Of a stretch of DNA of 64,000 nucleotides, positions 800-40,763 are shown one piece after another. The DNA lies in IMG/VR virus record IMGVR_UViG_3300043010_000145. One strand, written 5' to 3'. The notes below the pieces were generated by a model that saw nothing but the letters and a program-made list of their open reading frames with translations, did not search any database and was not told where the DNA came from. The stretch comes from a virus (Duplodnaviria; Caudoviricetes). A program made the position numbers and the translations under genes. The stretch's first letter is position 1, and each line of letters opens with the position of its first letter.

Positions 800-827
800 A
801 GTATACCACTAAAATTACAATAAGCAA
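800..827 (-). promoter_or_regulatory. sigmaA-type promoter for leader RNA/mini-array 1
   Basis: TTGCTT-16 nt-TATACT with extended TG; GTGGTATACTTTAA shared with the promoter at 39690-39718. Confidence 0.7.
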
Positions 828-900
828 GAAGAATATGAAAGTTTAGCTAAATTTTTTCAGTACATTTTAAGCAAAAGCACAGTTTTCAACTGTACTCCTT
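824..900. repeat. ~77-bp direct repeat, copy A (minus-strand terminator + start of -35 region)
   Basis: GCAAGAAGAATATGAAAGTTTAGCTAAATTTTTTCAGTACATTTTAAGCAAAAGCACAGTTTTCAACTGT nearly identical to 1548-1625. Confidence 0.9.
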
Positions 901-17972: not shown

Positions 17973-19190
17973 ATGAATTTAGACTTAGAAAAGCAAGAAT
18001 CAAATTCCACAGATTCTTCTGTTATTACTGCTTCATTTGAAGAAAGTCCATTTGATGAAAATCCGTTTGCTGCTGAAAACTCCTATGTTCCAGCCGTTTC
18101 CGTAGACAAGGAACTAAGCAAACGAGATACTACTGTAATGGAAGCACCAGAGGAATACAAGGCACGCCTGAAACAACTTCCACAAGTACAAGAATTAACC
18201 AACAAAATTGATATCAACAATCCTCGTACTGTTGAAATGTTCGGTCAAGAAGCAGGAGACGGTATTAGTCGAGTTGCTGACAATATGTTAGCAAGTACAC
18301 GAGCCATTAAAACTTCTGAAATTACTGCAATGATGGACCAGTTATCCAATGTAATGAAGAAAGTAGATGCTTCTGAACTAGATTTAGATGACATGTCAGG
18401 CAAAAGAGGTTTCTTTGGTAAATTACGAATGAGAGCCAAAGAATCCTTAGAAGAATTGATTAACCGTTATGACAATGTAGGTAAAGAAGTAGATAAGATT
18501 GCCCAGATATTAAACGGGTATATGACTGACATTGACCAGACAAATAAAAATCTGCTGAAAATGTACGATGCCAATATGCAATTCTACAAACAGCTTGAAT
18601 GGTATATTGCTGCTGCTGATTGCGGATTAGATGAGTTGACTGCTGAAATTGACAAAGTAAATGCAGATACAACTAAACCAAACGAAGAAAAAAGTTTCTT
18701 AGTAAGCAAATATACAGAAGTAGCAAACCGTCTTGAACAAAGAAAAGTAGACTTACAAACTGCCGAAGTGGTATCTTTACAGTTGCAGCCTACAATTATG
18801 ATGATGATGTCTTCTAATTATCGTCTTATGGGTAAAATTAACACTTCCTTCATCATTACATTGCCTGTTTTCAAAATTGCTCTATCCAATGCAATTATGT
18901 TGAAACGACAAGAAATTGAAGCAAGAAGTATTGCACAATTAGATGCTACCACAAATGATTTCCTCGAAAGAAATGCAAAAAATACAGCAACTCAAACAAA
19001 AGCGATTGCTAAAATGGCAAATCAGACAGGTATTAAAATCGAAACTCTTGAAAAAGTACAAACTACAATCATTCAAGGTGCAGAAGAAACACAACAGATT
19101 ATTGCAGAAGCTTCTCGTAAACGTAAAGAAGATTCCGCTCAAATGGATAAGATGATTTACCAGATGAAACAAAAAGGTTTCGCACAGTAA
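17973..19190 (+). CDS. telA: Toxic anion resistance protein (TelA/YceH family)
   Basis: Coiled-coil; KINTSFIITLPVFK, TNDFLERNA motifs; follows YceG-like gene. Confidence 0.85.
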   Translation: MNLDLEKQESNSTDSSVITASFEESPFDENPFAAENSYVPAVSVDKELSKRDTTVMEAPEEYKARLKQLPQVQELTNKIDINNPRTVEMFGQEAGDGISRVADNMLASTRAIKTSEITAMMDQLSNVMKKVDASELDLDDMSGKRGFFGKLRMRAKESLEELINRYDNVGKEVDKIAQILNGYMTDIDQTNKNLLKMYDANMQFYKQLEWYIAAADCGLDELTAEIDKVNADTTKPNEEKSFLVSKYTEVANRLEQRKVDLQTAEVVSLQLQPTIMMMMSSNYRLMGKINTSFIITLPVFKIALSNAIMLKRQEIEARSIAQLDATTNDFLERNAKNTATQTKAIAKMANQTGIKIETLEKVQTTIIQGAEETQQIIAEASRKRKEDSAQMDKMIYQMKQKGFAQ

Positions 19191-19299
19191 ATTTTAAGCA
19201 AGGCAATTTCCCGCCTTGCTTTTTCTTTTTCAAAGATTTTTCCATTTCAAAAAAATCTATATTTAATAGAACAAATAAGAAAGGAAGATAAACCTATTT

Positions 19300-20535
19300 A
19301 TGAAACCTTATACACATCTTGTAATGGTAAATAATGATAAGAACAACTACAAATTCTATGATATGTATGTTGAGAATTATACGGTTCGTTGTGTTTATGG
19401 ACGAATTGGTGCTGGAAGACAACAGCAGAAAGTGTATTCCCTTAGTGAATTCGATAAAATATATAACTCTAAAATAAGAAAAGGATATGTAGACCAGACA
19501 GATTATGTTGTGGAATCCACATCACAGCAGCAAACGGTTCTAAATGAAGAAAAGAAAGAAAAAGTAAAGAACGAAGCCAAGGTAACAGATGAACAGATAG
19601 AACTCTGGTATTTTCTTAAAACTTTAACAGACAATGCCAATCGCCGAGTTTTCACCAATGTCGGAGCAATTAGCAGAGCGGGTATCCGTCATGCCAAAGA
19701 ATTGCTTGAAGAAATGAAATACCATGCCAGTAAAGGTGATGTAAATTCTTTTAATGAGTGCATTATGGAAATAATGGCTATTTGCCCAAGAAATGTATCA
19801 GGCAACGGACAATATGGTGTTCAATCTTGGTTGACAGATATTTCTTATGATGCAGATGTGCAAGCTCGAATGATGCAGAGAATCATAAATCGTGAGGAGA
19901 ACATTATTCTTTCCATGAGTTCTCAGCTTGCTTACAATAACAGCAGTATTATTGTCGATAACCAAGAAGTCGGGTATATCACAGATACGGTTAAAGAAGC
20001 TACACCATATCAAGAACAGATTGTTCGTAAACATCTGACCGATTCTTTAAACAAAAAAGTTTACAAAATCTATCGTGTCATTCCAGAAGAACAAGGCAAA
20101 AAATACAAATTCTATTGCGATAAGTATGATATTCACAAAAAGAAACTCTTATGGCACGGCAGCCGTAATGAAAACTGGTTGAGTATCATTGAAACTAGCT
20201 TATCATTAAATCCAAAAGCAAAAATCACAGGCCGAATGTTCGGAAATGGTATATACTTTGCTAACAATCCTCGTAAGAGTTTCGGGTATACATCTAGCGA
20301 AAGTGCCTATTGGACGAATGAACATAGTGATTATGCGATTATGGGTTTATATGAAACTGCTTATGGTAATCCGCACGATTGCTATGCACCACATCACTAT
20401 TCCCAAAGAGAATTAAATGCAGAACATAAGAATTGTGTACATGCACACAAAGGACAGTATCTCTACAATGATGAAATCATTTATTATGATGAAGATGCAA
20501 TTTGCTTGCAATATATCGTAGTTTTCTATGCCTAA
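19300..20535 (+). CDS. Bacterial PARP-like ADP-ribosyltransferase with WGR domain
   Basis: NNYKFY...YGRIG (WGR); LLWHGS, GRMFGNGIYFA, KSFGY, NDEIIYY (H-Y-E triad). Confidence 0.9.
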   Translation: MKPYTHLVMVNNDKNNYKFYDMYVENYTVRCVYGRIGAGRQQQKVYSLSEFDKIYNSKIRKGYVDQTDYVVESTSQQQTVLNEEKKEKVKNEAKVTDEQIELWYFLKTLTDNANRRVFTNVGAISRAGIRHAKELLEEMKYHASKGDVNSFNECIMEIMAICPRNVSGNGQYGVQSWLTDISYDADVQARMMQRIINREENIILSMSSQLAYNNSSIIVDNQEVGYITDTVKEATPYQEQIVRKHLTDSLNKKVYKIYRVIPEEQGKKYKFYCDKYDIHKKKLLWHGSRNENWLSIIETSLSLNPKAKITGRMFGNGIYFANNPRKSFGYTSSESAYWTNEHSDYAIMGLYETAYGNPHDCYAPHHYSQRELNAEHKNCVHAHKGQYLYNDEIIYYDEDAICLQYIVVFYA

Positions 20536-20548
20536 TATTCTTACATAG

Positions 20549-20602
20549 AAGAGTAAGTACTCACTTACTCTTTTTTTCGTTTCTACAAGAACTGTTCGCC
20601 CG
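20549..20602 (+). repeat. ~54-bp direct repeat, copy A (includes terminator), left of RM cassette
   Basis: AAGAGTAAGTACTCACTTACTCTTTTTTTCGTTTCTACAAGAACTGTTCGCCCG repeated at 24294-24346. Confidence 0.9.
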
Positions 20603-20744
20603 CTTCTTCGGGAAAGGACTTGCTTTGTTGTATAATAGTAATAGAAATATTGTTAGGTAAGCATACTCTAACTCATACCAATTGTATGTTGCACTGAGTA
20701 TAGGCATGACCTTGAAATGTTTAACATTAGAGAGGGTATTAGCT

Positions 20745-21758
20745 ATGAAGATAAATAATCGAAGATATACGGGAAGTAAGTATAAATTAATGCCATGGAT
20801 TAAAGAATTAATTCTTGAAAACTGTTCTGAGCATAACACTTTATTTGATGTATTTGGTGGAACTGGTGTTGTTACTGCTGAACTTCTAGATGTTTTTAAT
20901 AGTGTAACAATAAATGATTTTCTTTTTTCAAATGAAGTTATTTATAAGGCTTTTTTTGGAAAGGATATCTATGATGAACAGAAATTATACGAGTATGTAA
21001 GAAAGTATAATTCATTGGATACAGATAAAATTGAAGATAATTATGTCTCTTTAAATTATGGAGGTAAGTATTTTCAGTATACTGATGCTAAGGTTATAGG
21101 GGAAATAAGGGAAGATATCGAGTCTGAGTATGTGCAGAAAAATATTAATACTCGTGAATACAATATTTTGCTTGCATCTTTACTGTATTCTTTTGATAGA
21201 TGTGCTAATACAGTAGGACATTATGAAGCTTATATTAAAGGAAAAGAGATTCCAAAAAAATTTTCTTTTAATTTGATTGAACCTTTACACATTGAAAATG
21301 AAATAACAATTTATCGTTCTGATGCAAATGAGCTAGCATCTTTGATTACAGCAGATGTTGCTTTTATTGACCCACCTTATAATAGTAGGCAATATTCTCG
21401 TTTTTATCATGTTATGGAGACAATTACGAAATGGGATAAGCCCAAACTTACAGGTGAGGCCATGAAACCACCAGTTGAAAATATGTCTGATTATTGTAGA
21501 AGTACAGCTCCTAGTGTTTTTGCGGATTTAATAGGAAAAATACAGGCCAAATATATTGTTGTTACTTACAACAATACTTATAATTCAAAAAGTACATCTT
21601 CTAGAAATAAGATTTCGTTAGAACAGATAAAAGATATTCTAGATACAAGGGGTAAAACGAAAGTGTATGAAAAAGCATATCATAGGTTTAATGCAGGTAA
21701 AACCGATACGAAAGGGCATAAAGAGTATGTCTTTATAACAGAGGTGTACGCTGAATGA
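20745..21758 (+). CDS. N6-adenine DNA methyltransferase (D12 class), M1 of a type IIS RM system
   Basis: RRYTGSKYKL, DVFGGTG, DPPY; GAGG RBS before ATG 20745. Confidence 0.85.
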   Translation: MKINNRRYTGSKYKLMPWIKELILENCSEHNTLFDVFGGTGVVTAELLDVFNSVTINDFLFSNEVIYKAFFGKDIYDEQKLYEYVRKYNSLDTDKIEDNYVSLNYGGKYFQYTDAKVIGEIREDIESEYVQKNINTREYNILLASLLYSFDRCANTVGHYEAYIKGKEIPKKFSFNLIEPLHIENEITIYRSDANELASLITADVAFIDPPYNSRQYSRFYHVMETITKWDKPKLTGEAMKPPVENMSDYCRSTAPSVFADLIGKIQAKYIVVTYNNTYNSKSTSSRNKISLEQIKDILDTRGKTKVYEKAYHRFNAGKTDTKGHKEYVFITEVYAE

Positions 21759-22672
21759 AAGACAATGTTTTACGTTCTCCGTTCTTTTATGTTGGTGATA
21801 AGTATAAATTGATGCCACAACTAAGAGAACTTTTTCCTAAGGATATTGATACCTATGTTGAGCCATTTGTTGGGGGTGGTAGTTCTTTCTTAAATGTAAC
21901 TGCAAAACATTATGTCGTGAATGACATTGATGCGAGCATAATTGAGTTACATAAATGGCTAACTTCCTATAAAGGAAAGGACGAGCAACTCTTAAATTTG
22001 CTATATGAACATATAGATAAATATGGTTTATCTTGTTCTTACAAAGGTATTTGTGTGCCAAATGAACTAAAGAAGAAATATGTTAAGACTTATTATTCAC
22101 ATTATAATCGTGAAGCATATCAAACTATGAAGAATGATTATAATAAAGAGAGCAGTACAGACCTTTTGTATCTTTTGTTAATTTATGGTTTTAATCATAT
22201 GATTAGGTTTAATAAGTCTGGTGAGTTTAATGTTCCAGTGGGGAATTTAGACTTCAATAAGAATGTCTTTAATGCAATACAAGGATATTTGAGTTTTATG
22301 ACTCAGAATATTGTAGAGTTCTATAACATGGATTTTATGGCATTTTTAGAACAGGTAAAGTTGAATGAACATTCTTATGTGTATCTTGACCCACCTTATT
22401 TAATCACAGGTTCTGAGTATACTAAATATTGGAATGAAAGTGAAGAAATAAGATTATGCAAATATTTAGATTTTTTGAACGATAAAGGCATAAGGTTTGG
22501 TATTACTAATCTTATTAACCATAAAGGAAAATTGAATGAAATATTCCTAAAATGGTCGAAAAAGTATTATGTTTATAATATTAATAGTAACTATATTAGT
22601 TTTAACGATAATACTGTGAAAAAAGAATCTAAGGAGGTATTTGTAACAAATTATGGCAAAAAGGAAATTTAA
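21755..22672 (+). CDS. Dam-family N6-adenine methyltransferase, M2
   Basis: SPFFYVGDKYKL, EPFVGGG, RFNKSGEFNVP, DPPY. Confidence 0.85.
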   Translation: MKDNVLRSPFFYVGDKYKLMPQLRELFPKDIDTYVEPFVGGGSSFLNVTAKHYVVNDIDASIIELHKWLTSYKGKDEQLLNLLYEHIDKYGLSCSYKGICVPNELKKKYVKTYYSHYNREAYQTMKNDYNKESSTDLLYLLLIYGFNHMIRFNKSGEFNVPVGNLDFNKNVFNAIQGYLSFMTQNIVEFYNMDFMAFLEQVKLNEHSYVYLDPPYLITGSEYTKYWNESEEIRLCKYLDFLNDKGIRFGITNLINHKGKLNEIFLKWSKKYYVYNINSNYISFNDNTVKKESKEVFVTNYGKKEI

Positions 22673-24218
22673 GCCTCTATCGTTTTCTACAACAATTCGA
22701 AATCCAGAAAGAATTCCTAAATTTTTAGCTTGTATATTACCGTATGAGAATGAAATACTTACATCAGAGATTATACATGAAATTGTTAAGATGCTTATAC
22801 GAGAGAAAGAATATAGACCGAGATATATTTTAGAAAATGATGAATTAAAAGCAATATATAAGGATTCAGATAAGACATATTCAGATAAGCAAATTGAAAC
22901 TATAATTAAGTATTCACCACAGAAACATAAAGAGGCTGGGTTTAAAAGTGGGTGGGATTCTAGATTTGATACATGGTATAAGATGTTAAAGGAACTTGGA
23001 TTTATAAAATATAAAATGGGTGCACCAATACAAATTACTGAAACTGGACATATGCTTATTGATGACTTCAACGATTCGTCCTCGAATAGCACAAAAACAA
23101 GATTAGTGTTCTTAAATGCATTAATGAAATACCAAACAAATAACCCACTTAGAAAAATCTCAAATGAAAATGCACCTTTGCCTTTACTATTAAATGTTCT
23201 GAAATATTTTAAAGAAGATGAAGAAGAAACAGATGCAGGTATTGCACGCCAAGAATTACCTATACTTATTTGTTGGACAAATAATGATGCAAAGGCAGCT
23301 TATCTTTATATAAAGAATATGCGGAAAGAGGTAGGTTTTAAGTATTCTGACGAGTATATTTATGATAAGTGTCTTTCTATTTTAGGTAATAATAATAAGA
23401 AATATTTGAAAATGAGTAAGATATGTCATGAATCTGTGGACGAATATATACGCAAAATGAGAATGACAAATCTAGTTTCTTTAAGAGGAAATGGTAGATT
23501 TTTAGATATTAATAGTTTTGAATGGGCTACTGTAAATTATATAATTGAAAATTACACAGATTACCTAAAATATGAGGATGAGGACACGTATATTGAATAT
23601 ATGTGTACCATAGATAGTAAGCTATTTAAGTTTGATGCACCACAACAGTCAAATAGTGCTGATGTTAAACAAAAGACACTATATAAGTATGCATCTACTT
23701 TAAGTACTGATGTTGTGCAAAAAGAACTTAAATTATTGTGCAAAAAGCAAGAGAGTACAAATGAGCTTTTCCGTTTTATTCCACCAGCAACTCGTTTGGA
23801 ATTCTTAACAAGTATTGTATTAGTCCAATGCTTTAAGTCATTAGATGTTAAGCCAAATTATGCTGTTGATGACGAGGGCTTACCTACATTTACTGCTGGC
23901 GGTGGCCTTGCAGATATAGAGTGCACCAGTAAAGATTACACAGGGTATGTTGAGGTAACATTACAATGTAGCAAAGTTAATCAAGTAAATAATGAGATAA
24001 TACCTATTTCTAGACATTTATTAGAAGCTAAACAGAATCATGAACAGCCTATGTTTACTATTTTATTAGCACCTAATATTCATTCAGATACAAAAGAAGC
24101 AGCTGATTGGCAAAGATATAAGTATGGTGCGGATATAAGAACTGTGGCTATGCCTGAGTTTTTAGATACTATACATAACAACAAAGATATAGAACTTGAA
24201 CAGGTTGGGAAACAGTAA
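22653..24218 (+). CDS. AlwI-family type IIS restriction endonuclease
   Basis: PLSFSTTIRNPERI, DDEGLP...GGGLADIEC...VEVTL; paired with two MTases. Confidence 0.8.
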   Translation: MAKRKFKPLSFSTTIRNPERIPKFLACILPYENEILTSEIIHEIVKMLIREKEYRPRYILENDELKAIYKDSDKTYSDKQIETIIKYSPQKHKEAGFKSGWDSRFDTWYKMLKELGFIKYKMGAPIQITETGHMLIDDFNDSSSNSTKTRLVFLNALMKYQTNNPLRKISNENAPLPLLLNVLKYFKEDEEETDAGIARQELPILICWTNNDAKAAYLYIKNMRKEVGFKYSDEYIYDKCLSILGNNNKKYLKMSKICHESVDEYIRKMRMTNLVSLRGNGRFLDINSFEWATVNYIIENYTDYLKYEDEDTYIEYMCTIDSKLFKFDAPQQSNSADVKQKTLYKYASTLSTDVVQKELKLLCKKQESTNELFRFIPPATRLEFLTSIVLVQCFKSLDVKPNYAVDDEGLPTFTAGGGLADIECTSKDYTGYVEVTLQCSKVNQVNNEIIPISRHLLEAKQNHEQPMFTILLAPNIHSDTKEAADWQRYKYGADIRTVAMPEFLDTIHNNKDIELEQVGKQ

Positions 24219-24293
24219 GTTCTAATATTGTTTAAATCAAAGTTTTCCTATATTTCCTATTCGTGCAGAGTGTATTTCTACTTCTATTCCATA

Positions 24294-24346
24294 AAGAGTA
24301 AGTACTCACTTACTCTTTTTTCGTTTCTACAAGAACTGTTTGCCCG
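24294..24346 (+). repeat. ~54-bp direct repeat, copy B, right of RM cassette
   Basis: Matches 20549-20602 with one indel and one substitution. Confidence 0.9.
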
Positions 24347-24411
24347 TATTTTTGGAAAAAATATGGAAACTAGTATAATAAAAGCATAGAGAAGAAAGGA
24401 CGGTTTGAAAT

Positions 24412-25110
24412 ATGCTTAATTTCACCGAATCTGCATCAAGCGGTTTTAGTGGCAATTCTGCCTTAGACCTTGATATTACAAAACAAGACTTATCTTTGGA
24501 CCTTTCCAAAACTCCTACATACTTAAATAAAATTTATGTTGGTGCTTCTTGGGATGCTCCAATTTTTGACTCACAGGGGGAAAGTTATGACCTTGACCTT
24601 ATCGCTGTATTCCTGAATGCAAATGGAAAACTGCTAGGTTTCAATCGTGCCAATGTACAAACAGCTATTAAGGGTATGCTTTGGTATCACAATCCAACAG
24701 CTCCGGGTATGCGATTCACAACTGGCGACAACCTAACAGGTTCTAGTGCACAAAATCGTATGAATACTGCAACAGATGATGAGGAAATTGAAATCTGTTT
24801 GAACGAAGTTCCAGCAGATTTGTGCAAAATTGTCTTCTGGATTGACATTAACGAAATCAGAGGAACAGGCCCTGCTATGTATAAACTGAGCCAAACGTTC
24901 GGACAAATCGAAAATGCACGAATTACTGTCTATGACGAAAATAAAAATGTACTGGCTCGTTTAAATCTGAATCAGGACTATGTAACAGACACAGCAGTTT
25001 GTGCGGGACAGTTAGAAAGAACACCGTCAGGCTGGGAATACAATGTTGTAGATGCTAAAAATCGTCATGGTATTTTTGATGTAAACGGCATTTGGCAGCA
25101 ATACATCTAA
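24412..25110 (+). CDS. terD: TerD-family stress protein
   Basis: VGASWD, DLDL, GDNLTG...DDEEIEI, FGQIENA. Confidence 0.85.
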   Translation: MLNFTESASSGFSGNSALDLDITKQDLSLDLSKTPTYLNKIYVGASWDAPIFDSQGESYDLDLIAVFLNANGKLLGFNRANVQTAIKGMLWYHNPTAPGMRFTTGDNLTGSSAQNRMNTATDDEEIEICLNEVPADLCKIVFWIDINEIRGTGPAMYKLSQTFGQIENARITVYDENKNVLARLNLNQDYVTDTAVCAGQLERTPSGWEYNVVDAKNRHGIFDVNGIWQQYI

Positions 25111-25129
25111 TTTTGAATGAGGAAACTTT

Positions 25130-25768
25130 ATGAGCATGTTAGACCTTGACCTCACAAAAGTTGAGGGTATCGACCTTACCAAAGGTGATTTATTAGACTT
25201 ATCCAAAGGTGGCTTAGAGACACACAAGTTACGAGTCGGAGCTGGCTGGAACTGTGTTGAGCGAGAAATGGGTTCTTTTATGGGCTTTCTGTTTGGCAAA
25301 ACACAAATGCTAGACGTAGACCTTGACCTTATTGCTGTTCTTGAAGATAAAAATGGCAGAGAACTCGAACGAGTTTACTTCAACCATAAGACGGATAGAC
25401 ACAATGCTATCCGTTTGGATAAAGATGACCGCCAAGGAGAAGCGGTAAGAATCAACATCGACTACCGTTGTACAAATACTTGCAAAGATACAGAAAACAT
25501 GACCGTTATCTTATCTAACTTGCCTGACAATGTACAGCATGTACGATTTGCCGTAGCCATTTATGATGAAAATACATTCCGTGATGTTCCACAAGCTTAT
25601 TGCAAACTTGTAGATGAAACAGAAGGACGGGTATTATGTAGTTTCAAAATGTCCGAAGACGGCGGAAGAAACAAGTCCATTCGTATGCTGACTTTACATA
25701 GAGCTGGCACAAGCTGGACTTTGGAAGCTATTGGTGAATACACACCAAATCGTTGGAACAATGTGTAA
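25130..25768 (+). CDS. TerD/TerZ-family stress protein
   Basis: VGAGW, DVDLDL, VYFNH, DDRQG, WTLEAIGE. Confidence 0.8.
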   Translation: MSMLDLDLTKVEGIDLTKGDLLDLSKGGLETHKLRVGAGWNCVEREMGSFMGFLFGKTQMLDVDLDLIAVLEDKNGRELERVYFNHKTDRHNAIRLDKDDRQGEAVRINIDYRCTNTCKDTENMTVILSNLPDNVQHVRFAVAIYDENTFRDVPQAYCKLVDETEGRVLCSFKMSEDGGRNKSIRMLTLHRAGTSWTLEAIGEYTPNRWNNV

Positions 25769-25797
25769 TTCATAGATACAGAAAGGAAAATAGATTT

Positions 25798-28431
25798 TTG
25801 ACAAAAGAAAATTACGGCTTGACCACCGAGCAAGCCGCAGAGAGCAAGAAGAAATACGGGACGAATGCTCTTTCTGTTAAAGAAGGCGACAGTTTCTGGA
25901 AAATCTACTTAGGTACTTTTGAAGATACTTGGATTCGTATTCTCTTAGCTGCTGCAATTATCGACTTATTGATTTATGTACTTGGTATTTTCTGGCCTCA
26001 GTATTTCTCTGGGGATTTAATTGAAGTTGCTGGTGTAGTATTTGCTATGCTTCTTTCTACGGGAGTTTCTGCTCTGACAGAATGGAAGAACAACAAGCAA
26101 TACAACACACTGCAAGCAGAAGCAAGTAAAATCAAGACAAAAGTATATCGTGACGGGGAACTTCACGAAATGCTTATTGACGACCTTGTAAAAGGAGATG
26201 TAGTTCTGCTTCAAGCAGGCGACCAAGTACCAGTTGACGGTTTAATTCTGAAAGGTTCTTGCGAAGTTTCACAGGCTGCCTTGAACGGAGAAAGTGAACC
26301 ATGCAAGAAAGAAGTAGCACCTGAAACCTTAGACCGAGATACGATTGATGAAGATTATGTCAATCCATACTGGGTATATCGTGGTTCTGTTATTACAGAA
26401 GGTGAAGTACTTGTCGAAGCTCGTGTAATTGGTGATTCTACTGTATTAGGTACGATTGCTGATGCCATTGGCGAGAAAACAAAACCTAGTCCGTCTGCTG
26501 AAAAAATGGACAAACTGGCTGGTTCTATTGGTAAATTAGGCTTATACGGTGCAACATTAGCTGTTATTGCTAACATTGTCATTACTCTTATGAGTGCGGA
26601 CTTATCTACTTATACAATCGGTTCTTATCTGTCCTTGGGTATTGCTAACTTAATGCTCTTTGTTGCTATTATCATTATGGCTGTACCAGAAGGTTTGCCA
26701 ATGATGAACAGCCTTGTTGCAAGTATGAACTGTGGACGAATGATTAAAGAAAATGTACTCGTTCGCCATGCAGAATCCATTGAAACAACAGGGTATATGA
26801 ATGTATTGTTCTCTGATAAAACAGGAACAATTACAAAAGGGCAACTCGAAGTAGTAGATATCATTGATGTAAACGGAAATGTAGTTCCAGCTGCTGACCG
26901 TATCAACCAAGATAATGTGATTGCACAAGAACTTGTAAAAGGACTTGGCTTGAACAATGATGCTATGGAAGCAGACGGAAAAGCTATTGGTTCTAACGGT
27001 ACTGACCGTGCATTACTGAACTTCTTGATTGAAAATGATAAATATGAAACTCTTGACCGTTCCCTTGTTGGCGAAAAAGAACCATTCACATCTGCTACAA
27101 AATGTGCAAGAGTGCATACACCAGACGGTATTTATTGGAAAGGTGCACCAGAAGCTGGCTTAGAAGTTGCTAAATATTGCATGTACGATGATGGTGTAAT
27201 TAAACCATTGAACAATCATCGTATGGAACAGATTACAAAAGCAATGAAAGACCAAATGGGCAGAGCCATGCGACTGCTTCTGATTATGAAAGAAACACCG
27301 GGCTTTGAATCACCTATCTTCTTGGGTATCGTATGTATTCGTGATGAAGTTCGTCCTGATGTAGTTCATACTGTTGAGCAAATGAACACAGCAGGCTGTG
27401 CCGTTGTTATGGTTACAGGTGATTCTGCTGATACTGCACAAGCTATTGCAAGAGATGCTGGCATTTTAAAACACGAATCTGATGTAGTTTTAACTTCCAA
27501 ACAACTCGCTGCCATGTCAGATGATGAAGTAAAAGAAGTATTACCATTCCTTCGTGTTGTAAGTCGTGCTAGACCAATGGATAAACGTAGATTAGTCCAG
27601 CTTGCCCAAGACATCGACATGGTTTGCGGTATGACGGGTGATGGTGTCAATGATGCTGCCGCTTTATCTGCTGCTGATGTTGGCTTTGCTATGGGTGACG
27701 GAACTTCTGTTGCAAAAGATGCTTCTGACATCGTTATTGTTGACAACTCTCTGACTTCTATTGGAACTGCTATGAAATATGGTCGTACTATGACAAAATC
27801 AGTCCAGAAATTCTTGATTTTCCAGCTGACTGTCAATATTACAACTATTCTGATGAATGTACTTGCACCATTCTTAGGCTTCTCCGAACCATTTACAATC
27901 GTGCAAATTCTCTGGATTAACTTAATTATGGATACACTGGCTGCTCTTGCTTTTGGTGAAGAACCAGCCTTAGACAGATATATGGACGAGAAACCAGTTT
28001 CCCGCAATGCTTCTGTATTAACACATTACATGAAGTCCTCTATTGGAACTGCTGCTATCTATATCGCTGTTATTTCTGTATTAGGTTACTGCACAAACTG
28101 GCTGAATACTTATCTGTCAATCAGTACAGACAAGGGTATTCGTAGTTTTGTATTCTGCACATTCATCTATGCAGTAATCTTCAATGCATTCAATACTCGC
28201 TCTTCCGATTACAACATCTTCGAGGGTATTACGAAAAACAAGAAGTTCCTCTATGTAATGGGTTCTATCTTTGTTCTGCAAACTCTCTTAATCTATGTAG
28301 GCGGAGCCGTATTCGGTACTGTACCAATGGATGCTCAAACATTGCTTGCAAGCATTGGACTTGGTTTCTTAATTATTCCAGTTGATATGGTTAAGAAATT
28401 TATCTATAAACACTTTGTAAGCGAAGAATAA
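25798..28431 (+). CDS. Ca2+-transporting-type P-type ATPase (likely TTG start at 25798)
   Basis: NGESEP, AVPEGLP, DKTGT, KGAPE, MVTGD, TGDGVND, QILWINLIMDT; GAAAGGA RBS. Confidence 0.9.
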   Translation: MTKENYGLTTEQAAESKKKYGTNALSVKEGDSFWKIYLGTFEDTWIRILLAAAIIDLLIYVLGIFWPQYFSGDLIEVAGVVFAMLLSTGVSALTEWKNNKQYNTLQAEASKIKTKVYRDGELHEMLIDDLVKGDVVLLQAGDQVPVDGLILKGSCEVSQAALNGESEPCKKEVAPETLDRDTIDEDYVNPYWVYRGSVITEGEVLVEARVIGDSTVLGTIADAIGEKTKPSPSAEKMDKLAGSIGKLGLYGATLAVIANIVITLMSADLSTYTIGSYLSLGIANLMLFVAIIIMAVPEGLPMMNSLVASMNCGRMIKENVLVRHAESIETTGYMNVLFSDKTGTITKGQLEVVDIIDVNGNVVPAADRINQDNVIAQELVKGLGLNNDAMEADGKAIGSNGTDRALLNFLIENDKYETLDRSLVGEKEPFTSATKCARVHTPDGIYWKGAPEAGLEVAKYCMYDDGVIKPLNNHRMEQITKAMKDQMGRAMRLLLIMKETPGFESPIFLGIVCIRDEVRPDVVHTVEQMNTAGCAVVMVTGDSADTAQAIARDAGILKHESDVVLTSKQLAAMSDDEVKEVLPFLRVVSRARPMDKRRLVQLAQDIDMVCGMTGDGVNDAAALSAADVGFAMGDGTSVAKDASDIVIVDNSLTSIGTAMKYGRTMTKSVQKFLIFQLTVNITTILMNVLAPFLGFSEPFTIVQILWINLIMDTLAALAFGEEPALDRYMDEKPVSRNASVLTHYMKSSIGTAAIYIAVISVLGYCTNWLNTYLSISTDKGIRSFVFCTFIYAVIFNAFNTRSSDYNIFEGITKNKKFLYVMGSIFVLQTLLIYVGGAVFGTVPMDAQTLLASIGLGFLIIPVDMVKKFIYKHFVSEE

Positions 28432-30429: not shown

Positions 30430-30957
30430 ATGCCCAGCAAGAGAACCCCAGCCCATTTCTACACGAGAGGGAAATTTGGGAAGCGACTTCGAGAAGTCGC
30501 TGACCAAGAGAACCCCTACTTATATTCACAAGGAAGGTATGCAACGAAGTTGCAACCTTCCGACCTCCCCAATACTTACATATCTATTCACAGCAGAAGC
30601 TTATGGTACACCGAAGGCTTTATCCAAACAGCGAATGTCGTAGACATCTGCTACATACCGCTGCATCTAAATCATCTATTCAAAGATGACTATTTATACA
30701 TCAGTTATTCCGCAGACCGACCTCTGCAAATCGAGCCAACCCGATATGGCATTCCCGAATGCCTAAGCTACGACATATGTATCTGTGGCAATGACATACC
30801 GAAGCTGCTAGAAGCCATCGCTCTCAACTCCCCACACTGCCATAATCTCTCTGAGACCAAAGCCTCTGTGAAAGAGAAAGTAGAATGGTTTGCCACTCGT
30901 TACCCCGAGAGCTCTAAATCCATCAATTATCTGCATGAGCACTATGACTGGTTATAA
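30430..30957 (+). CDS. Hypothetical protein (175 aa)
   Basis: TATAAT -10 and GAAAGGAG RBS; non-repetitive protein sequence. Confidence 0.75.
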   Translation: MPSKRTPAHFYTRGKFGKRLREVADQENPYLYSQGRYATKLQPSDLPNTYISIHSRSLWYTEGFIQTANVVDICYIPLHLNHLFKDDYLYISYSADRPLQIEPTRYGIPECLSYDICICGNDIPKLLEAIALNSPHCHNLSETKASVKEKVEWFATRYPESSKSINYLHEHYDWL

Positions 30958-31150
30958 CCAGTCATTTTTATTACCTATCTCCAATATTCTCGCCTGTCTT
31001 TTATCGCCTGTCCTCTATCTCGCCTATCTGCTCTCGCCTGTCTGCTCTCGCCCGTCTATCCTTGTTGTAGTTCAGCCAGCCTATCCTATCCACCTAGCAC
31101 CACTTCTTCGGGTATCTTGTCGTAGCAGATGTTTCTGCCACCTTCTGCCT

Positions 31151-31220
31151 TGCCTTATCTTGCCTTATCTTGCCTTATCTTGCCTTATCTTGCCTTATCT
31201 TGCCTTATCTTGCCTTATCT
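31151..31220 (+). repeat. (TGCCTTATCT)x7 tandem repeat
   Basis: Direct reading. Confidence 0.95.
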
Positions 31221-31362
31221 TGCATCATTTCTATCTTGTAGGGTACTTTTGTCTTGGCTTAGCTTTATTCTCGCCTATCTCTATCTTGGCTTAGCTCTAT
31301 CTCTGCCTAGAAAGGCGGCCACGGTTCTCATTACATTTCGAACCTAAGACCCGCCTTTGTCT

Positions 31363-31520
31363 AGGCAAAGCAATCATTCAGGCAAAGCAATCATTCAGGC
31401 AAAGCAATCATTCAGGCAAAGCAATCATTCAGGCGAAGTAATTATTCAGGCGAAGTAATTATTCAGGCGAAGCAATTATTTAGGCGAAGTAATCTCTTGG
31501 CGAGTAATTATTTAGGAGAA
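31363..31520 (+). repeat. 17-bp tandem array AGGC(A/G)AAG(C/T)AAT(C/T)ATTC, about 9 units
   Basis: Four exact units then degenerate units. Confidence 0.9.
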
Positions 31521-33000
31521 GATACACCAAATGCTTGAAGTCCAGCACACTTCATCGGGTATCTTGTCATAGCAGATGTTTCAACAGACTGGTTATCTTG
31601 CCTTGCCTTGCACTATCTTGCCTTATTCCTATCTTGCAGTGTACTTCTGTTTTGTATTAGATTTACTCTTGCCTATCTTTATCTCAGTCTAGCTTTATTC
31701 TCGCCTATCTTTTGTCTTGGCTTAGCTTTTGTCTTGGCTTAGCTTTTGTCTTGGCTTAGCTTTTGTCTTGGCTTAGCTTCTGTATTGGCTAGCTATATCT
31801 AGGTATAGAAAGGCGGCCACCTTGGTAACTTCTCTATCCTCGTTACCCGCCTTTGTCTAGGCGAAGCATTTAACTAGGCGAAGCATTTAACTAGGCGAAG
31901 TAATGATTCAGGCTAAGTAATTATTCAGGCGAAGCAATCAACTCTGCATAAATATATCTGGCAAAGCATATTCTACTTGCATACAGCATGAATCAAGCAT
32001 CAGTCTATATCTGCATGCAGTGTTATTCTCGCCTGTCTGCTTTCTCGCCTGTCTATCCTCGCCTGTCTTTTCTCGCCTGTCTCTCCCTGTTGTAGTTCAG
32101 CCAGCCAGCCTATCTGCTCTCGCCTATCCTCCCACCTCCTCACTTCATTGGGTATCTTGCAGTAGCAGATGCTTCTACCTACTGGTTATCTTGCCTTGCC
32201 TTATCTTGCATCATTTCTATCTTGTAGGGTATTCTTGTCTGGGCTATCTTTTGTCTTAGCCTATCTTTATTCTTGCCTATCTTTATTCTTGCATATCTTT
32301 ATTCTTGGCTTAGCTCTATCTCTGTCTATCTTTATTCTCGCCTATCTTTTGTCTTGCCTTAGCTCTATCTCTGTCTATCTTTTGTCTTGCCTTAGCTCTA
32401 TCTCTGTCTATCTTTTGTCTTGCCTTAGCTCTATCTCTGTCTATCTTTTGTCTTGCCTATCTTTTGTCTTAGCCTAGCTATATCTAGGTATAGAAAGGCG
32501 GCCACGGTACTCCATTGCATTTCGTACCTAAGACCCGCCTTTGTCTAGGCGAAGCAATATTTAGGCAAAGCAATCATTTAGGCGAAGTTATTATCTAGGC
32601 AAAGTAATTAACTAGGCGAAGCAAACCATATATTTGCACACAGTACGGTTCTTGCATATACCCAACAAGGAGAAGCAATTGCAAGCAAGAATATGTTTGC
32701 ATGAAGCGATATCTACACCCGCCTTTGCATAGGTAACTAATTATTCAGGCACAGATATATTCAGGCGAAGCAATTAATCAGGCTGCTATACTGCACATCA
32801 TTTCTGCACCAAGAAAGCCTATATTTAGATATTTTTGTATCTTGCCTTACTATGTATCATCGCCTGATATAATCTCGCCTGTTTATTCTCGCCCTACACC
32901 ACTTCCTAGGGTATCCCTTCCACCCTTACAGTTGTGGCATACAGAAACACCTAGGCGGAGACGGATTTGCATACATATTATCTTCGCCCAGATTTATTTA

Positions 33001-33068
33001 TCGCCTGTACTTATTCTTCGCCTGTACTTATTCTTCGCCTGTACTTATTCTTCGCCTGTACTTATTCT
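33001..33068 (+). repeat. (TCGCCTGTACTTATTCT)x4
   Basis: Direct reading. Confidence 0.9.
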
Positions 33069-33545
33069 TCGCCTAGCTTTATCTCGCTTGCTATATTCTT
33101 GTCATAGTTTTAGCTTAGAAAAGGCGGTGGACATCGTTGCACGAGACCCACCGCCTTTGCCAATAGAAGCAGTCAGGTGCAGAAGATATAAGGAACAGTA
33201 TGAAGCAGTTCTAAGCAGGCATAAGGCACATAAACAAGGAGGGCAGGGTATTTACATCTAGCCACAGGCGAAACCTGGAATTGTACTATCTTGATGATAG
33301 CGGTGTTCGTGTATGGTTTTACAAGAAGCCTTCTCTAAGCCAAATAAAGGTTGCATGCAATTCTTCTAAATGCAGAAAATATCGCCGCTCGCACGAAGTA
33401 CGAGCGGCCCTCTGCATATGCACACAGCTAATATTGGAGCAGCCTTTCAGTTTTCACACAACAAACGGTTTCACATAGTATAATAAAAGTGAAACAACAC
33501 AACTCGTAAGCCAGCGGGTAATATTTCAAGGAGGAACAAGGAGAA

Positions 33546-34415: not shown

Positions 34416-35051
34416 TACAAACAAAAGGCTCGCCTACTGCGAGCCTTTTGTTGCATCTTATACTTATTTGTTGTGGCTTCTGCCTGCTCTACTATTACTT
34501 GGCATAGTTCCTGTGCACATTCATATTGGGTATTTCAACATTAGCGAAAATCAGGCAAACTTCACCTATGTGTAATGCAATCAGCCAAGCACAAAAAGCA
34601 GCCGAAGTCAACACTTCTCTTCACTTTTTATTTTTATCACATCACAACTCGTGTAGGTATACAATCAGGCAAAAGATAGTATCAGCTAGAGGAATATTAC
34701 TTTGGCGTCTTTAATGTGAAGTATATATGGGCGAAGATATTTTTTAGCACTAGTACCAGTCATACAAAGCAAGTAAACTTGCTTTGTATGACTATCTAGA
34801 TGAAGCAAGAATTCAAGTGGGGTTTTACTCTACAATAAGTCATTATTTTAATTTTAGCAATTGCCTTTAAGTAAAGCATATTAGGGTATGCATGCACTTT
34901 GGGTTGAATCTAATGCAAGCCCAATTTCTAATTCTAATTCTAATTCTAATGCAAATGAAAACACAGAAAAACTAACAAAGTAAAAAGCAAGCAGTACTTT
35001 GCTTGCTTTTTACTTAAATGTGGTTTCTAAATCTTGATACTCACCAAGCAC

Positions 35052-35221
35052 AAAAAAAGCAGCCTGTGGCTGCTGTAAACATGCTCGCTGTGAGCAATCC
35101 TGATTGCATCTGATGACAGATAGCTGCAATCGTACATCATTTTTCAGACTTTGGATTTGCAGTCCATTTTATATGTCAGAGCAGTTCTAAGGTACTTGTA
35201 CTAGCAATCATCCCCAAGTAC
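35052..35221 (-). ncRNA. Candidate structured small RNA
   Basis: TTGACT-17 nt-TATACT promoter (35228-35256, minus); terminator GCAGCC-aca-GGCTGC-T7; internal hairpins. Confidence 0.55.
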
Positions 35222-36197
35222 ATTCATAGTATAGCCCAGCCGCCAGCCAAAGTCAACACTTTTCTTCACTTTTTATATTTTATTGCATCACAACTTGTGC
35301 GGGTATTTTACAGGCAGAATACATCTTGAAGGAAAGGTATCTGGGCGAAGACAAATTATGCACGAGTTAGCCATACAAAGCGAGTTTACCTACCATAAGT
35401 AAGTTAACTTACTTATGGTAGGTGGCTGTATGGCTGGTTGGATGCAGGCAGAAATCAAGTGAAGTTCTAATCTACAAGCAGTTATTATTCAACACTAACA
35501 AACACCTTTAAATAAAGCACATTCTGGTATTTTTAACTAGTAAGCATTCACCAGAGTGATTTCTGGGTATACTTGTTAGCACTTGTCTTGATTTTTGCTT
35601 AGAGTGTATGCTCTCGTGCTTTATTTCGTAAAAGCTCGGAAACAGCAATTTCCGAGCTTCTGCAAGTCCAGAAACTGCACTATTTGAGCTTTTAGCAAAG
35701 TAACAACTTTATCTACTTTTTCTAAGGAAAGTCAGTTAATTTTAAAATACATCTTCACTCAGCCATACATCTGCATCTCACCAGCTACAAAAAGCAAGGC
35801 ACCTTGCTTTTTGTAGCTAATCTCGTGCCAGCCACCTACCAGAAGCAAGAGACCTTGCTTCTGGTAGGTAGTCTTCGCCTAGCTCAATCTCTCATATTGT
35901 CATTTTATTAAGCAAGGGCGGACCCGAAGACAAGCTCATTACATTCGCTTACTTCTACACCCGCCCTTTGCTTGTTGTAGTTTCTGCCTGATGTAGTTTC
36001 TTACTTGTCGTAATTTCTTCTTGCCCTAGTTTCTGCTAGCTGCCTTCTTTGCCCACAGTAATTTCTGCCCGCTCAGCTCTTGTCTTGCCCTATCTATTAT
36101 ATTCTTGCAGAACTTCAGTCTAACACTCTTCACATTTTATAGCTAATAATCAAGGAATATAAAAAGCCACATCGTAGATGTGGCTTTATTTCTTCAC

Positions 36198-36941: not shown

Positions 36942-38541
36942 TGTTTTTCTCCTTTCTTGCATCTTCATCTATGTATTTGCAAGTTTTTATCTTTTTCTAT
37001 ATTTATATATTAGCACAGTATAGTTTTATTTGCAAATATTTATTCAATAATTAGTACGATATAGATAAGTACTCGCATAGCAAAGTTCGGGTATTTTCAG
37101 GCGGAGTCAGATTCAGGCGAAGATATGTTTAGCACGAGTTAGCCATACAAAGCAAGTTTCCTTGCTTTGTATGGCTAGGTAGATGAAGCAAGAATTCAAG
37201 TGAAGTGTTCCTCTACAATCAGTCATTATTCCAATTTAGCAATCACCTTTACATAAATTCCCAGCTATGCAAAGCAAATTTATTTTGCTTTGTATAGCTA
37301 ATCGTTCTTACAGAATGATTATTTGGGTATTCTTAGCCAGCAGACATTCACCAGAGCGATTTCTAGGGTCACATGTTACCACTTGTCTTGATTTTTGCTT
37401 AGAGTATATGCTCACGGGCTTTATTTCGTAAAAATGCGGAGAGTGAACTCTCCGCATTTGCAGAAACTCGGAAATTGCACTATTTGGACTTTTAGAAAAG
37501 ATACGGCTTTATCTACTTTTTCTAAGAAAATGTGGCTTAACACACCACGATACTGCCACAGGCAGTTAATTTTTGAGTACATCTTCACTTAACCACATAT
37601 TTTCATCCATCCAAGGATATGTGCAATCCACCTACCAGAAGCAAGGTCTCTTGCTTCTGGTAGGTGTTCTTCGCCTAGCTCCACCTCTGCCTAGCTTTAT
37701 ATCTAAACAAACAAGGGCGGACCCGAAGACAAGCTCATTACATTCGCTTGCTTCTAAACCCGCCCTTGCTTGCCGTAGTTTCTTGCTTGCCGTAGTTTCT
37801 TGCTTGTTGCAGTTTCTTCGCTCCCTTATGGCATCTACTGTGGGGATGCTTGCCATAGCTTTTGCCTGTTGCAATTATTTCTTATTGTATTTTTCACTTG
37901 CTCTATATTTATCTTGCCCACTATTCCTCCTCCCTTTTGCCTGCTTCACTTCATCGGGTATTTTGTAAGCAATTTGTTTTCTAACCTAGCAGATAAGGTA
38001 TATGTACCGAAACATAGCAAGCTATGAATTACATAAGGCAGTAAGCAAAAGTTCGGCGGGTACGACAGTTAGGCGAAGCTGCATTATGCACGAGCCAGCC
38101 ATACCAAGCGAGTTTTCTCGCTTGGTATGGACAGTTAGATGTATGCAGAAACCAAGTGAAGTTGTATCTAAAATCATCCAGTATTCAATACAAGCAATCA
38201 CCTTTATATAAAGTATATTGGGGTATTTTCAAACAGCAGACATTCACCAGAGTGATTTCTAGGTGCACTTATTACCACTTGTCTTGATTTTTGCTTCAAG
38301 TATGCACTCACGAGCTTTATTTCGTAAAAGCTCGGAAACTGCGATTTCCGAGCTTGCAGAACATCAGAAATTGCACTATTTGAGCTTTTAGATAAGGAAC
38401 AACTTTATCTAATTTTTTCTAAGAAAAGACAGTTAATTTCTGAATAAATCTTCTCTCAGCCAAGGAACTTCATCCAGCCAATTCTCGTGCTAGGTAATTT
38501 CTCCGCCCAACAAAAAACCATGCCGAACGGCATGGTTTTAT

Positions 38542-39243
38542 TTATTTCAAATCTTTCACAACTAAATCAGGGAATTCAGCCTTATAAGAATCCACTTTAC
38601 CATTCTTAAAGAAGAATCTGTAATATCCATCCCATGTATCTGATTCCAGTTCCAGCTTAATCATCTTTTCCGTATGCTTGCTTGCTTCCAACAGCAGTCT
38701 CAGCAGCGGTTCTAATTCCAACTCACAGCTTCCGTCATCATAGAAAGTCAGGCATTTGCCAGTCCAGTTGCCATTATATCCATCAGCCATATACTCAGGC
38801 AAGCCAACAGTGTTCAATGCTCTTTTTGGAGCATAGATGCAGCCGCTTACAACTTCAAAAACGGAAGGAATTTCCAACTCAATATGCAAAAGCAGGCATT
38901 TATCCAAGGCAACAAAATCTTTTTCCTTTGGTTCTTTAGGCAGATACAAATAGTAGGTTGCTCTTTTCTTGCCAAGTGCATAAATTACATAGCTGTGGTC
39001 TTCGTGCAAATCCGGGTTGAATGCTTGCAAACTGAACAGCACATCTGGGTATACCTTAGTAATTTCGTCCAGCAGCCAGTTTACCCAGTACTGTGTAGAC
39101 CAGTCCAAGCTTTTGTAATCAGACCAGCTATACGATGCAAAGTTTCTGATAAAATCCTCATTTGGTAAAAGTGATTGAAGTGTGCCTCCCACATTTTCCG
39201 TTTTTTGCGGGTCGGAAAGCAGTTCTAATACATACATTGCCAT
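38542..39243 (-). CDS. Hypothetical protein (233 aa); its 5' end is matched by the mini-array 2 spacer
   Basis: AAAGGAG RBS; terminator at ~38512-38540. Confidence 0.8.
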   Translation of the reverse strand: MAMYVLELLSDPQKTENVGGTLQSLLPNEDFIRNFASYSWSDYKSLDWSTQYWVNWLLDEITKVYPDVLFSLQAFNPDLHEDHSYVIYALGKKRATYYLYLPKEPKEKDFVALDKCLLLHIELEIPSVFEVVSGCIYAPKRALNTVGLPEYMADGYNGNWTGKCLTFYDDGSCELELEPLLRLLLEASKHTEKMIKLELESDTWDGYYRFFFKNGKVDSYKAEFPDLVVKDLK

Positions 39244-39689
39244 TTTAATTAACTCCTTTTATTCATTCTCAGGGTATTCCACCCTCGTCTCTATCTGTAA
39301 TTATCTTACTATATTTTCTATCCTTTTTCAAGTGGTATGTAAGAATATTTATGAAATAGTATAGAATAATTTTATATTCACACACATCTTTGCTCAGGAA
39401 GTTTTTCTAAAAAAACCGCTTGCATTCACCTTCTATCTGTGATATATTATGGTTGCCCTCCGAAGAGGACAGTTATTTTTTTTGGACATGTTAAGACAAA
39501 AGCCACAGCGAATGCTGTGGCTTTTGTCTTTTAGTATTCATATTCTTCATCTTCGTCAGTTTCTACTGGCTCGTAAATCTTATATCTAGGTGTTGCATAT
39601 AGTTTTGCTTTTCATATGTAGTTCTTCTCCTTTTCAACTATTTCAATGTCGTACTAATTTTTTTTGTAAAAATTTAAATCATTTTTTTA

Positions 39690-39718
39690 TTGCATACTTA
39701 TTTTATTTGTGGTATACT
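39690..39718 (+). promoter_or_regulatory. sigmaA promoter for leader RNA/mini-array 2
   Basis: TTGCAT-17 nt-TATACT with extended TG. Confidence 0.75.
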
Positions 39719-39724
39719 TTAAAC

Positions 39725-39868
39725 AGACAAGGAAAAGCATTAGATATTAGGGTGCTTGGGTGAAAAACCTAAGTGAGCCCCGCACGGGCGGGGAAATCCT
39801 ATATTATTTAAAGCTAGCAAAATGATATAGGTCAGTAAAAGTGCACGTTTACTGCAATGCTTTCCTTC
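39725..39868 (+). ncRNA. Conserved structured leader RNA, copy 2, with embedded repeat-like unit at 39773-39799
   Basis: Closing stem AAGGAAAAGCAUU/AAUGCUUUCCUU; hairpins CCUAUAUUAUUU/AAAUGAUAUAGG and CAGUAAA/UUUACUG; GTGAGCCCCGCACGGGCGGGGAAATCC. Confidence 0.7.
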
Positions 39869-39998
39869 TAAAGATGTCAGGCTTGGGAACTAGTATGTCT
39901 TAACTATTCGATTGGAAAACACAGATATGTTGCAAATTTGCGGATTTGTAACAAGGTATACCAAGTTAAGTATGAAAACGGAAAAGCATCTTTCTAGT

Positions 39999-40108
39999 AC
40001 TTGCCCCATAAGGGTGGGAATGTTTCTGTATGTATTAGAACTACTTGTTGACCGTTTGCCCCGCACGGGCGGGGATATGTTTCTTGTTTCAACAATCTAT
40101 ACAAGTTG
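39999..40108 (+). CRISPR. Orphan type I-E-like mini-array 2: degenerate repeat (39999-40027), 26-nt spacer (40028-40053), repeat (40054-40084), short terminal spacer
   Basis: ACTTGCCCCATAAGGGTGGGAATGTTTCT and GTTTGCCCCGCACGGGCGGGGATATGTTTCT; preceded by AT-rich leader ending TTTCTAGT. Confidence 0.8.
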
Positions 40109-40135
40109 GCACTCCGCAAATGCGGAGTGTTTTTT
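40109..40135 (+). terminator. Intrinsic terminator closing mini-array 2
   Basis: GCACTCCGC-aaat-GCGGAGTGT + T run. Confidence 0.85.
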
Positions 40136-40203
40136 CTATTGTCTAACAAGATAAAGCAGCGATACCTCGACACATAGGTCGGACTTCGCTGCTTTATCTT
40201 GTA

Positions 40204-40763
40204 TCAGATTTTATCTAACCATAACATTTGTTTTGTAGCAGATTTCACCTCGCTACAGTCTTTGTTTTGTACTAGATTTTGTCTAGTCGCAATCTTTATT
40301 TTGTTCCAGTATTTATCTTGTCCTATTTTCTCTACTCCACCTCTTCTGCCAGCACCAAACATTCTATGCATCAGCATTATACCCATACTATGATATTCTG
40401 CACCACCAGTAGAAGCACAGCAATCCTCTATTACAATAGGAATAATACCCGCATCCCAGAGCGAAATAGCACAGGCAAGCACACAAATTCCCAGCTATGC
40501 AAAGCAAATTTAGTTTGCTTTGCATAGCTAATTATTCTGTTAGAATAATTGCAAGTAAGCTCCTGTTCCGTAGCAGATTCCATTTTCATCCAACCTATTG
40601 CTTTTTCGTAGATACTTCCTTGTTCATTCTTGAATTGGGTACAAATTACGGTATCAAATTTCTTATTAGCAACCAGCTTCTGTATTCTTTCTGCACAAAC
40701 TTTTGTGTTTTCGTCTAAAAGAAAGCCTTGTTGTACATCTACAATCAGTAATATCTTCTGCAT
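40204..40763 (-). pseudogene. Isochorismatase/cysteine hydrolase pseudogene disrupted by a palindromic element at ~40486-40532
   Basis: LLIVDVQQGF in one frame, CVLACAISLWDAGIIPIVIEDCCAS in another; intervening conserved segment missing. Confidence 0.8.

Follow-up and report, generated by a model that had tools for sequence, protein, structure and literature searches.

The stretch of viral DNA analysed here, 64,000 nucleotides of one strand of record IMGVR_UViG_3300043010_000145 (Duplodnaviria; Caudoviricetes) and referred to below as the window, carries at positions 39690–40137 a small plus-strand unit, mini-array B, in which two repeats of the CRISPR kind (short palindromic repeats that are clustered and regularly interspaced) enclose a single 26-nt spacer. 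This spacer is a diverged, in-frame copy of the first codons of the divergent neighbouring gene, 38542–39243 on the minus strand, which encodes a 233-amino acid (aa) protein. On balance we favour the interpretation that mini-array B is a weapon without cas genes, the guide of which is aimed at sibling elements carrying another allele of this gene, and that the resident allele is the linked, immune version. The same relationship between guide and neighbouring gene recurs on the contig to which the window belongs.

Mini-array B is a self-contained transcription unit lying between the divergent gene and position 40137, with all of its parts on the plus strand. Its promoter (TTGCAT, 17 nt, TG-extended TATACT; 39690–39718) was read from the sequence and aligned to those of two sister cassettes, A and C, and is conserved in all three. 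There follow a structured leader RNA of ∼140 nt (39727–39868), delimited by aligning the three copies, and a linker between leader RNA and repeat 1 (39869–39998) which by alignment is homologous to the linker of cassette C and is missing in cassette A. The array proper, a repeat–spacer–repeat at 39999–40084 and so within the one to two repeat-bounded spacers of a mini-array, consists of a degenerate repeat 1 (39999–40027), spacer B (40028–40053) and an intact repeat 2 (40054–40084). The core of repeat 2 is the same as in array 1 (the array of cassette A) and in cassette C, with a 2-nt AT insertion before the handle. A trailer and an intrinsic terminator (40085–40137; stem at 40108–40131 and a T run) complete the unit; the trailer is common to array 1, and its motif is also seen in the loose ends of other copies among contigs.

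When repeat 1 is compared with the cassette C repeat, 7 of the 21 positions in the hairpin part are altered, against none of the eight in the handle, ATGTTTCT. The seven substitutions take in the stem-foot base pair, and the repeat still forms a 5-bp hairpin, with one compensatory pair and one wobble. Four copies of the repeat core are present in the 64-kb window, where none is expected, and two of these belong to sister unit A. The core recurs with a period of 55 nt in array B and 61 nt in array 1, so spacer B is 6 nt shorter than the 32-nt spacer of array 1, as the original prediction for this locus had stated.

The match between spacer B and the coding strand of the gene begins exactly at spacer position 1 and occupies 39235–39210 (minus strand), within codons 3–11, with 22 of 26 positions identical. 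Positions 1–15 are perfect, the mismatches at positions 16 and 20–22 are distal to the candidate protospacer-adjacent motif (PAM), and 7 of the 11 positions past the 15-nt block also match. No shuffled version of the spacer (0/400) reached 22 identities anywhere in the window, the best shuffle giving 21, and the next-best match of the spacer itself in the window is 18/26. The 5′ flank of the resident site is AAT (39238–39236), the T of which is the same as the last base of repeat 1. Both the identity and the flank had been part of the original prediction, and both held when re-read in the sequence.

In the frame of the gene, the four differences resolve into one synonymous change (CTG in the resident, CTA in the spacer) and one whole codon (TCC against GTT, serine against valine). 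Translation bears out the earlier observation that the spacer reads YVLELLVD where the resident gene reads YVLELLSD. As read from the sequence, the mismatches are patterned by codon, as between two alleles, and not as in a guide tuned for partial pairing. The contig was walked outward by exact-protein look-ups, giving a merged 106 kb together with 9 kb upstream of the window (115 kb in all, from −9 kb to +106 kb). A tblastn search with the N-terminus of the gene product against the 106 kb matched only the gene itself and the spacer.

Five guide/gene pairs were found over this distance. Mini-arrays A and B and cassette C, which has a solitary repeat, supply one each, and two type I-C arrays contribute one spacer apiece. 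In every pair the guide is a diverged in-frame copy of a gene less than 1 kb away. Third codon positions hold 22 of the 33 differences over the five pairs (binomial P ∼9e-5), and the polarity of the guide is the sense of the gene it resembles in 5/5 pairs, for which the chance is ∼1 in 16; it is thus the template strand to which the CRISPR RNAs (crRNAs) would hybridise. Three of the five pairs have seed mismatches in the resident copy, as expected for self-immunity. The 5′ flanks of the resident sites are AAT for B, AAT for C and AGC for A.

Sister cassette A (543–830, minus strand) has the same promoter, leader RNA and trailer as mini-array B, with repeats at 633–605 and 572–543 and a 32-nt spacer at 604–573. 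The resident near-match to spacer A (1036–1067, minus strand; 25/32 identity) lies at the 3′ end of a 164-aa gene at 999–1493. It includes 19 contiguous matches and seed mismatches at positions 3, 4 and 6, and the in-frame translations are YAKSMQSVQG for the spacer and YTKSMQSVRE for the resident upstream gene. Cassette C, on contig piece L019 (∼11725–12110, corresponding to ∼73470–73850 in window coordinates), is of the same type and has one repeat, then a 51-nt guide and a terminator. Its guide copies the last 16 codons and the stop codon of the upstream gene, in frame and with divergence. As the first six bases of this guide are identical to those with which a repeat begins, a recombination junction in cassette C is suggested rather than insertion by Cas1–Cas2. 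A fourth mini-array, with the same repeat and another 32-nt spacer, was seen in a contig joining 39794 to 40054, in DNA run X1 only; its spacer has no match within the 106 kb. At least four cassettes are thus kept in one genome. The 164-aa protein and a 66-aa neighbour are ORFans with no homologues in the protein collections searched.

The remaining two pairs belong to an adaptation-less type I-C locus (L024 11800–20800, ∼96500–105450 in window coordinates) comprising cas3, cas5d, cas8c and cas7 and two arrays with duplicated leaders. One spacer of each array matches the directly flanking gene, at 27/34 positions on the left and 29/34 on the right, and all five differences between the right-hand spacer and its resident gene are synonymous. 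Only those two of the 31 spacers of the locus match anywhere in the 106 kb. The N-terminal 240 residues of the Cas3 encoded here gave no HD-domain match.

Evidence for transcription comes from contigs of three animal-gut metatranscriptome studies mapped on 38400–40200, which as contigs do not prove levels, strands or ends. Contigs 100% identical to the gene, from the three studies, cover 38575–39283 and cross the protospacer-like site. The coverage begins just inside the terminator and reaches ∼40 nt upstream of the ATG, and 39315–39680 is without RNA contigs although a DNA run covers that stretch. This fits a transcript that starts from the predicted promoter of the gene (TTGAAA-17-TAAGAT, located by a consensus scan at 39331–39303 on the minus strand) and runs through the protospacer-like site. 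In three gut RNA libraries, contigs over the leader RNA are very deep and fall into several sequence variants, which makes the family multi-copy, with strong representation in RNA. Spacer A is itself present as RNA (run X3). With promoter, terminator and RNA, the cassettes have the leader and the transcription of known mini-arrays, as far as contig evidence goes.

Copies of the leader RNA, ∼140 nt long, stand before each cassette (window 39727–39868, plus strand, for B; 654–800, minus strand, for A; L019 11752–11893 for C). A closing stem and three hairpins make up their consensus fold, in which two pairs are compensatory among the three copies; a full repeat-like hairpin (39773–39799) is found inside the leader RNA of cassette B only. 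The leader RNA matched no Rfam family, and no Rfam CRISPR-DR model matched arrays A and B. The leader RNA may be more than a CRISPR leader.

In setting out the favoured interpretation, that of a weapon against sibling elements, we infer the rival allele, the effector, the effect on siblings, the immunity of the resident and the linkage argument. Spacer B would copy the first codons of another allele of the neighbouring gene, carried by sibling elements, and the host would supply a matching effector, type I-E-like or type IV-like to judge by the shape of the repeat. The crRNA would then guide the effector to attack or silence incoming siblings that have that allele, leading to the exclusion of relatives. 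The four PAM-distal differences in the resident allele would stop completion of the R-loop, so that the carrier would be spared cleavage. With the guide less than 1 kb from the immune allele, recombination between siblings would rarely unite guide and target in one genome. The original prediction had offered as its alternative that the spacer derives from a homologous gene in a competing element; the evidence favours that alternative, and no such element was found.

Several observations weigh against this interpretation. The resident site of cassette B, unlike those of A and C, retains both the putative PAM and a seed that is perfect over 15 nt, so its immunity would have to rest on the PAM-distal mismatches or on an unknown PAM rule, and some distal mismatches are tolerated by E. 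coli type I-E. Repeat 1 is degenerate and the spacer short, so crRNA B may not mature. No RNA contig covers spacer B, which with contig data is not evidence of absence. The rival allele was found in no searched collection. Finally, neither type I-E nor type IV cas genes were found in the 115 kb, and an array with this repeat was found neither there nor in the species genomes. Where a host has the right Cascade, the resident gene may also be subject to a side effect, since its PAM and seed are intact and the layout is CreR-like.

The searches for relatives covered several collections. A blastn search with 38400–40300 gave no match in plasmid and phage collections, and a 31-nt piece of the leader, a gapped leader signature and the repeat plus handle had no exact match in genome, viral or metagenome contigs; the metagenome blanks say little, since the window's own contig is absent from that collection. 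Exact spacers A and B are absent from the viral contigs, and the perfect protospacer for which a search with spacer B had been suggested was accordingly not among them. Among 185,579 species genomes, the exact 19-nt repeat core turned up only as isolated chance matches in GC-rich taxa, and as no array. All samples carrying the locus are identical over it, with no population variation.

As to the effector, Pfam and gene tables for the 115 kb show neither type I-E nor type IV cas genes, no csf or dinG genes were seen there, and no cas gene lies within 39 kb of mini-array B. The sole cas operon in the 115 kb is that of type I-C, which starts 58 kb away and has an unrelated repeat. Its Cascade was considered as the effector and rejected, as repeat and handle are unrelated to those of the mini-array. 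The nearest cas-like genes are two tandem stand-alone Cas3-HD genes without helicase, of 297 and 371 aa (L019 16908–17801 and 18265–19380; ∼78650–81120 in window coordinates), the distance being ∼5 kb to cassette C and 17 kb to the type I-C operon. The original prediction had argued from the PAMs of type I-E. The repeat geometry of that type is present, with the 61-nt period of array 1 beside the 55 nt of array B, whereas no type I-E cas gene was found in the 115 kb; as read from the sequence, the label type I-E is a matter of repeat shape only (∼29 nt with a GC hairpin, a 3′ handle of 8 nt and a period of 61 nt).

Of the other explanations, the one closest to the original prediction is autoregulation of the CreA/CreR kind, in which a host Cascade would bind the PAM and 15 nt without cleavage and repress the 233-aa gene, with derepression on loss of Cascade. 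Mini-array B does parallel the layout of the Salmonella type I-E CreR, with a worn repeat 1 that keeps its 8-nt handle, a hairpin-bearing repeat 2 and 15 matching nt beside a PAM. The handle is kept in full (8/8) though 7 of the 21 other bases of repeat 1 have changed, the hairpin is retained, and the target lies in the adjacent divergent gene; moreover, regulatory crRNA-like RNAs borne by mobile genetic elements, phages or plasmids, exist (10.1101/2024.10.29.618823). The position of the site, however, argues against repression. It lies inside the open reading frame at ∼+60 to +86 from the predicted transcription start, neither in nor beside the promoter, and crRNA B would anneal to the template strand. 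For type I-E CRISPR interference in E. coli, targets in transcribed regions brought about repression only where they lay on the non-template strand or inside the polymerase footprint, and pairing with the template strand gave no repression by Cascade beyond that footprint (PMC4288209). The 7 of 11 further matches and the codon-wise mismatches fit allelic divergence and not limited pairing, and RNA contigs identical to the gene cross the site in the three studies. The seed-mismatched sites of cassettes A and C, at gene 3′ ends, cannot regulate, and B would need an explanation of its own.

The claim that the gene is silenced by Cascade and derepressed on its loss is thus countered by the position and strand of the site, by the codon-patterned mismatches, by the RNA contigs across the site and by the lack of a cognate Cascade in the 115 kb. 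Nor does the shortness of the guide suffice to make it a repressor: in E. coli, crRNAs with spacers of more than 20 nt still interfere, and a 26-nt spacer is interference-proficient (PMC5159557). No cas operon or toxin gene is associated with the array. For the 233-aa gene itself, once suggested as a toxin or anti-defence protein, nothing supports either role; it is an ORFan without a recognisable family. Taking these points together, we think autoregulation unlikely.

Mini-array B could also be a decaying relic, a once-functional array now eroding, of which only the abundant leader RNA may still matter. Erosion would account for the seven substitutions in repeat 1, including the stem-foot pair, for a spacer B of 26 nt instead of 32 nt and for the single repeat of cassette C. 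Neither cognate cas genes nor a host array was found, and the RNA libraries are deep on the leader with no contig on spacer B. Set against this, the handle is fully conserved and the hairpin is preserved by a compensatory pair, the promoter and terminator are intact and common to all copies, spacer A is present as RNA, and at least four cassettes are maintained in one genome. We consider decay quite unlikely.

The placement of the guides bears on a further proposal, that each cassette is a homing unit, the guide of which would cut the rival allele in a co-resident sibling, whereupon repair would copy the resistant allele and the cassette together in the manner of a gene drive. All five guides aim at most 1 kb away; co-conversion needs such placement and simple competition does not, and the proximity of target and array has been called unexplained in the literature (PMC6858448). 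The guide of cassette C is a 51-nt gene tail running to the stop right after a single repeat, which is recombination-like and not Cas1–Cas2-like, and the resident alleles are mostly silently recoded. Against homing, neither an invaded/empty pair of loci nor relatives were found, and guide B is inverted relative to its gene and is therefore not a displaced gene fragment. Degradation of the Cas3 type is processive and not obviously suited to precise conversion, and the linkage argument accounts for the proximity without homing. We judge homing the least probable of these explanations. A more general version, in which the cassettes are units that cut the rival allele and carry a recoded copy, so that a cut sibling either dies or is converted to the allele and cassette, would if true explain both the array-adjacent targets and the gene tail on the single repeat of cassette C; we regard it as very unlikely. 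A reading of hairpin and flanking guide as a TnpB/omega-RNA-like system or a transposon end was set aside, as A and B are true repeat–spacer–repeat arrays with a 61-nt period (in array 1) and there is no adjacent nuclease gene.

The 233-aa product of the neighbouring gene (P0001; minus strand, defined by its open reading frame and translation) belongs to no Pfam, PHROG or ESM Atlas family and has no homologue in 5.8 billion clusters or 1.84 billion representatives. Its AlphaFold model is poor (predicted local distance difference test score, pLDDT, 45) and unfit for a fold search. Between this gene and cassette B lies a further small plus-strand unit (39385–39530), with a TG-extended −10 promoter and a hairpin RNA containing CCUCC, ended by a strong 17-bp terminator hairpin (39493–39530); no RNA contig was seen over it.

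The element as a whole is a large, mobile-looking DNA from animal-gut microbes, represented by contigs of 79–577 kb which consist mostly of ORFans. Genes for several methylases, a restriction enzyme and SpaA adhesins are present on them, as are Ter genes. Only weak, below-threshold similarity was seen to VirB4-like and FtsK-like ATPases, and no phage hallmark was present among the PHROG matches. In the window, a C5 cytosine methylase gene at 15337–17298 contains an intein (Hint and intein-splicing domains) and is surrounded by other methylases and an AlwI-like restriction enzyme (20682–24218). The region 17973–28431 encodes TelA, a WGR-PARP protein, two TerD proteins and a P-type cation ATPase, and resembles a stress or defence island. 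Dense direct repeats of 10 nt and 16/17 nt, iteron-like and in several blocks, occupy 30900–33100, and are followed by three copies of a 90–260-nt unit (∼34730–35730, 37115–37530 and 38071–38426).

A spacer that matches a neighbouring gene would, taken alone, be a further instance of a published pattern. The value of this locus lies in the five independent pairs of guide and resident allele in 106 kb, each less than 1 kb from the array and all in the sense orientation, and in at least four cassettes with a shared leader RNA that is undescribed and has very high contig depth in gut RNA libraries. They provide material with which to test array-adjacent targets, setting linkage of weapon and immune allele against homing, and also allow one to test by-product binding or silencing of a resident site in which PAM and seed are intact.

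Three known kinds of system invite comparison. Plasmid type IV-A CRISPR-Cas serves inter-plasmid conflict (PMC7038947; 10.1101/2023.06.23.546257), and like it the cassettes would be element-borne guides aimed at competitors, with a type I-E-like repeat architecture; adaptation supplied in trans would be a further shared feature. In contrast to type IV-A, no csf or dinG accompanies mini-array B, which has a single spacer and its own leader RNA.

The likeness to CreR and other regulatory crRNA-like RNAs is closer in form. Of the pseudo-repeats in the Salmonella type I-E CreR, the first has retained the 8-nt 5′ handle and the second the 3′ hairpin; 15 consecutive matching nt lie beside a trinucleotide PAM, and the known regulatory RNAs of this kind act at promoters (10.1101/2023.03.10.532045). 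Mini-array B shares the degenerate repeat 1 with a conserved 5′ handle, the intact 3′ hairpin repeat, the shortened spacer and the 15 consecutive matches beside an AAN trinucleotide. The known RNAs, however, target promoters of cas or toxin genes and lie in or beside cas loci, whereas array B is far from any matching cas operon and matches coding sequence downstream of a promoter, on a strand that does not block E. coli RNA polymerase, with codon-patterned matches continuing beyond the 15-nt block. Handle and hairpin are thus kept as in CreR, and neither a promoter-adjoining target, nor a position in a cas locus, nor regulation of a cas or toxin gene was found.

The closest counterparts are the virus-borne mini-arrays. 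Those of the Saccharolobus portogloboviruses SPV1 and SPV2 have a leader, one or two spacers and no cas genes (Medvedeva et al. 2019, PMC6858448; reviewed in PMC11656645), and their spacers match array-near regions in sibling viruses, the orthologous locus of the carrier being point-mutated (PMC6858448). Phage mini-arrays, according to Faure et al. 2019 as cited there, target adjacent genes of close relatives. The present locus fits this kind on each testable feature, the two elements not found being a protospacer with a perfect match and, in the host, an array of the same repeat: it has one to two spacers, a promoter-bearing leader and no matching cas genes nearby, its spacer resembles an array-near gene of which the carrier copy has point differences, and solitary repeats occur as well. 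It differs in belonging to a bacterial, animal-gut element with type I-E-like repeats (by their shape), and in a resident site that keeps its PAM and seed. It is further set apart by a leader that is a conserved, strongly represented structured RNA of ∼140 nt, and by the presence on the same contig of an adaptation-less type I-C system which likewise carries spacers directed at its neighbours.

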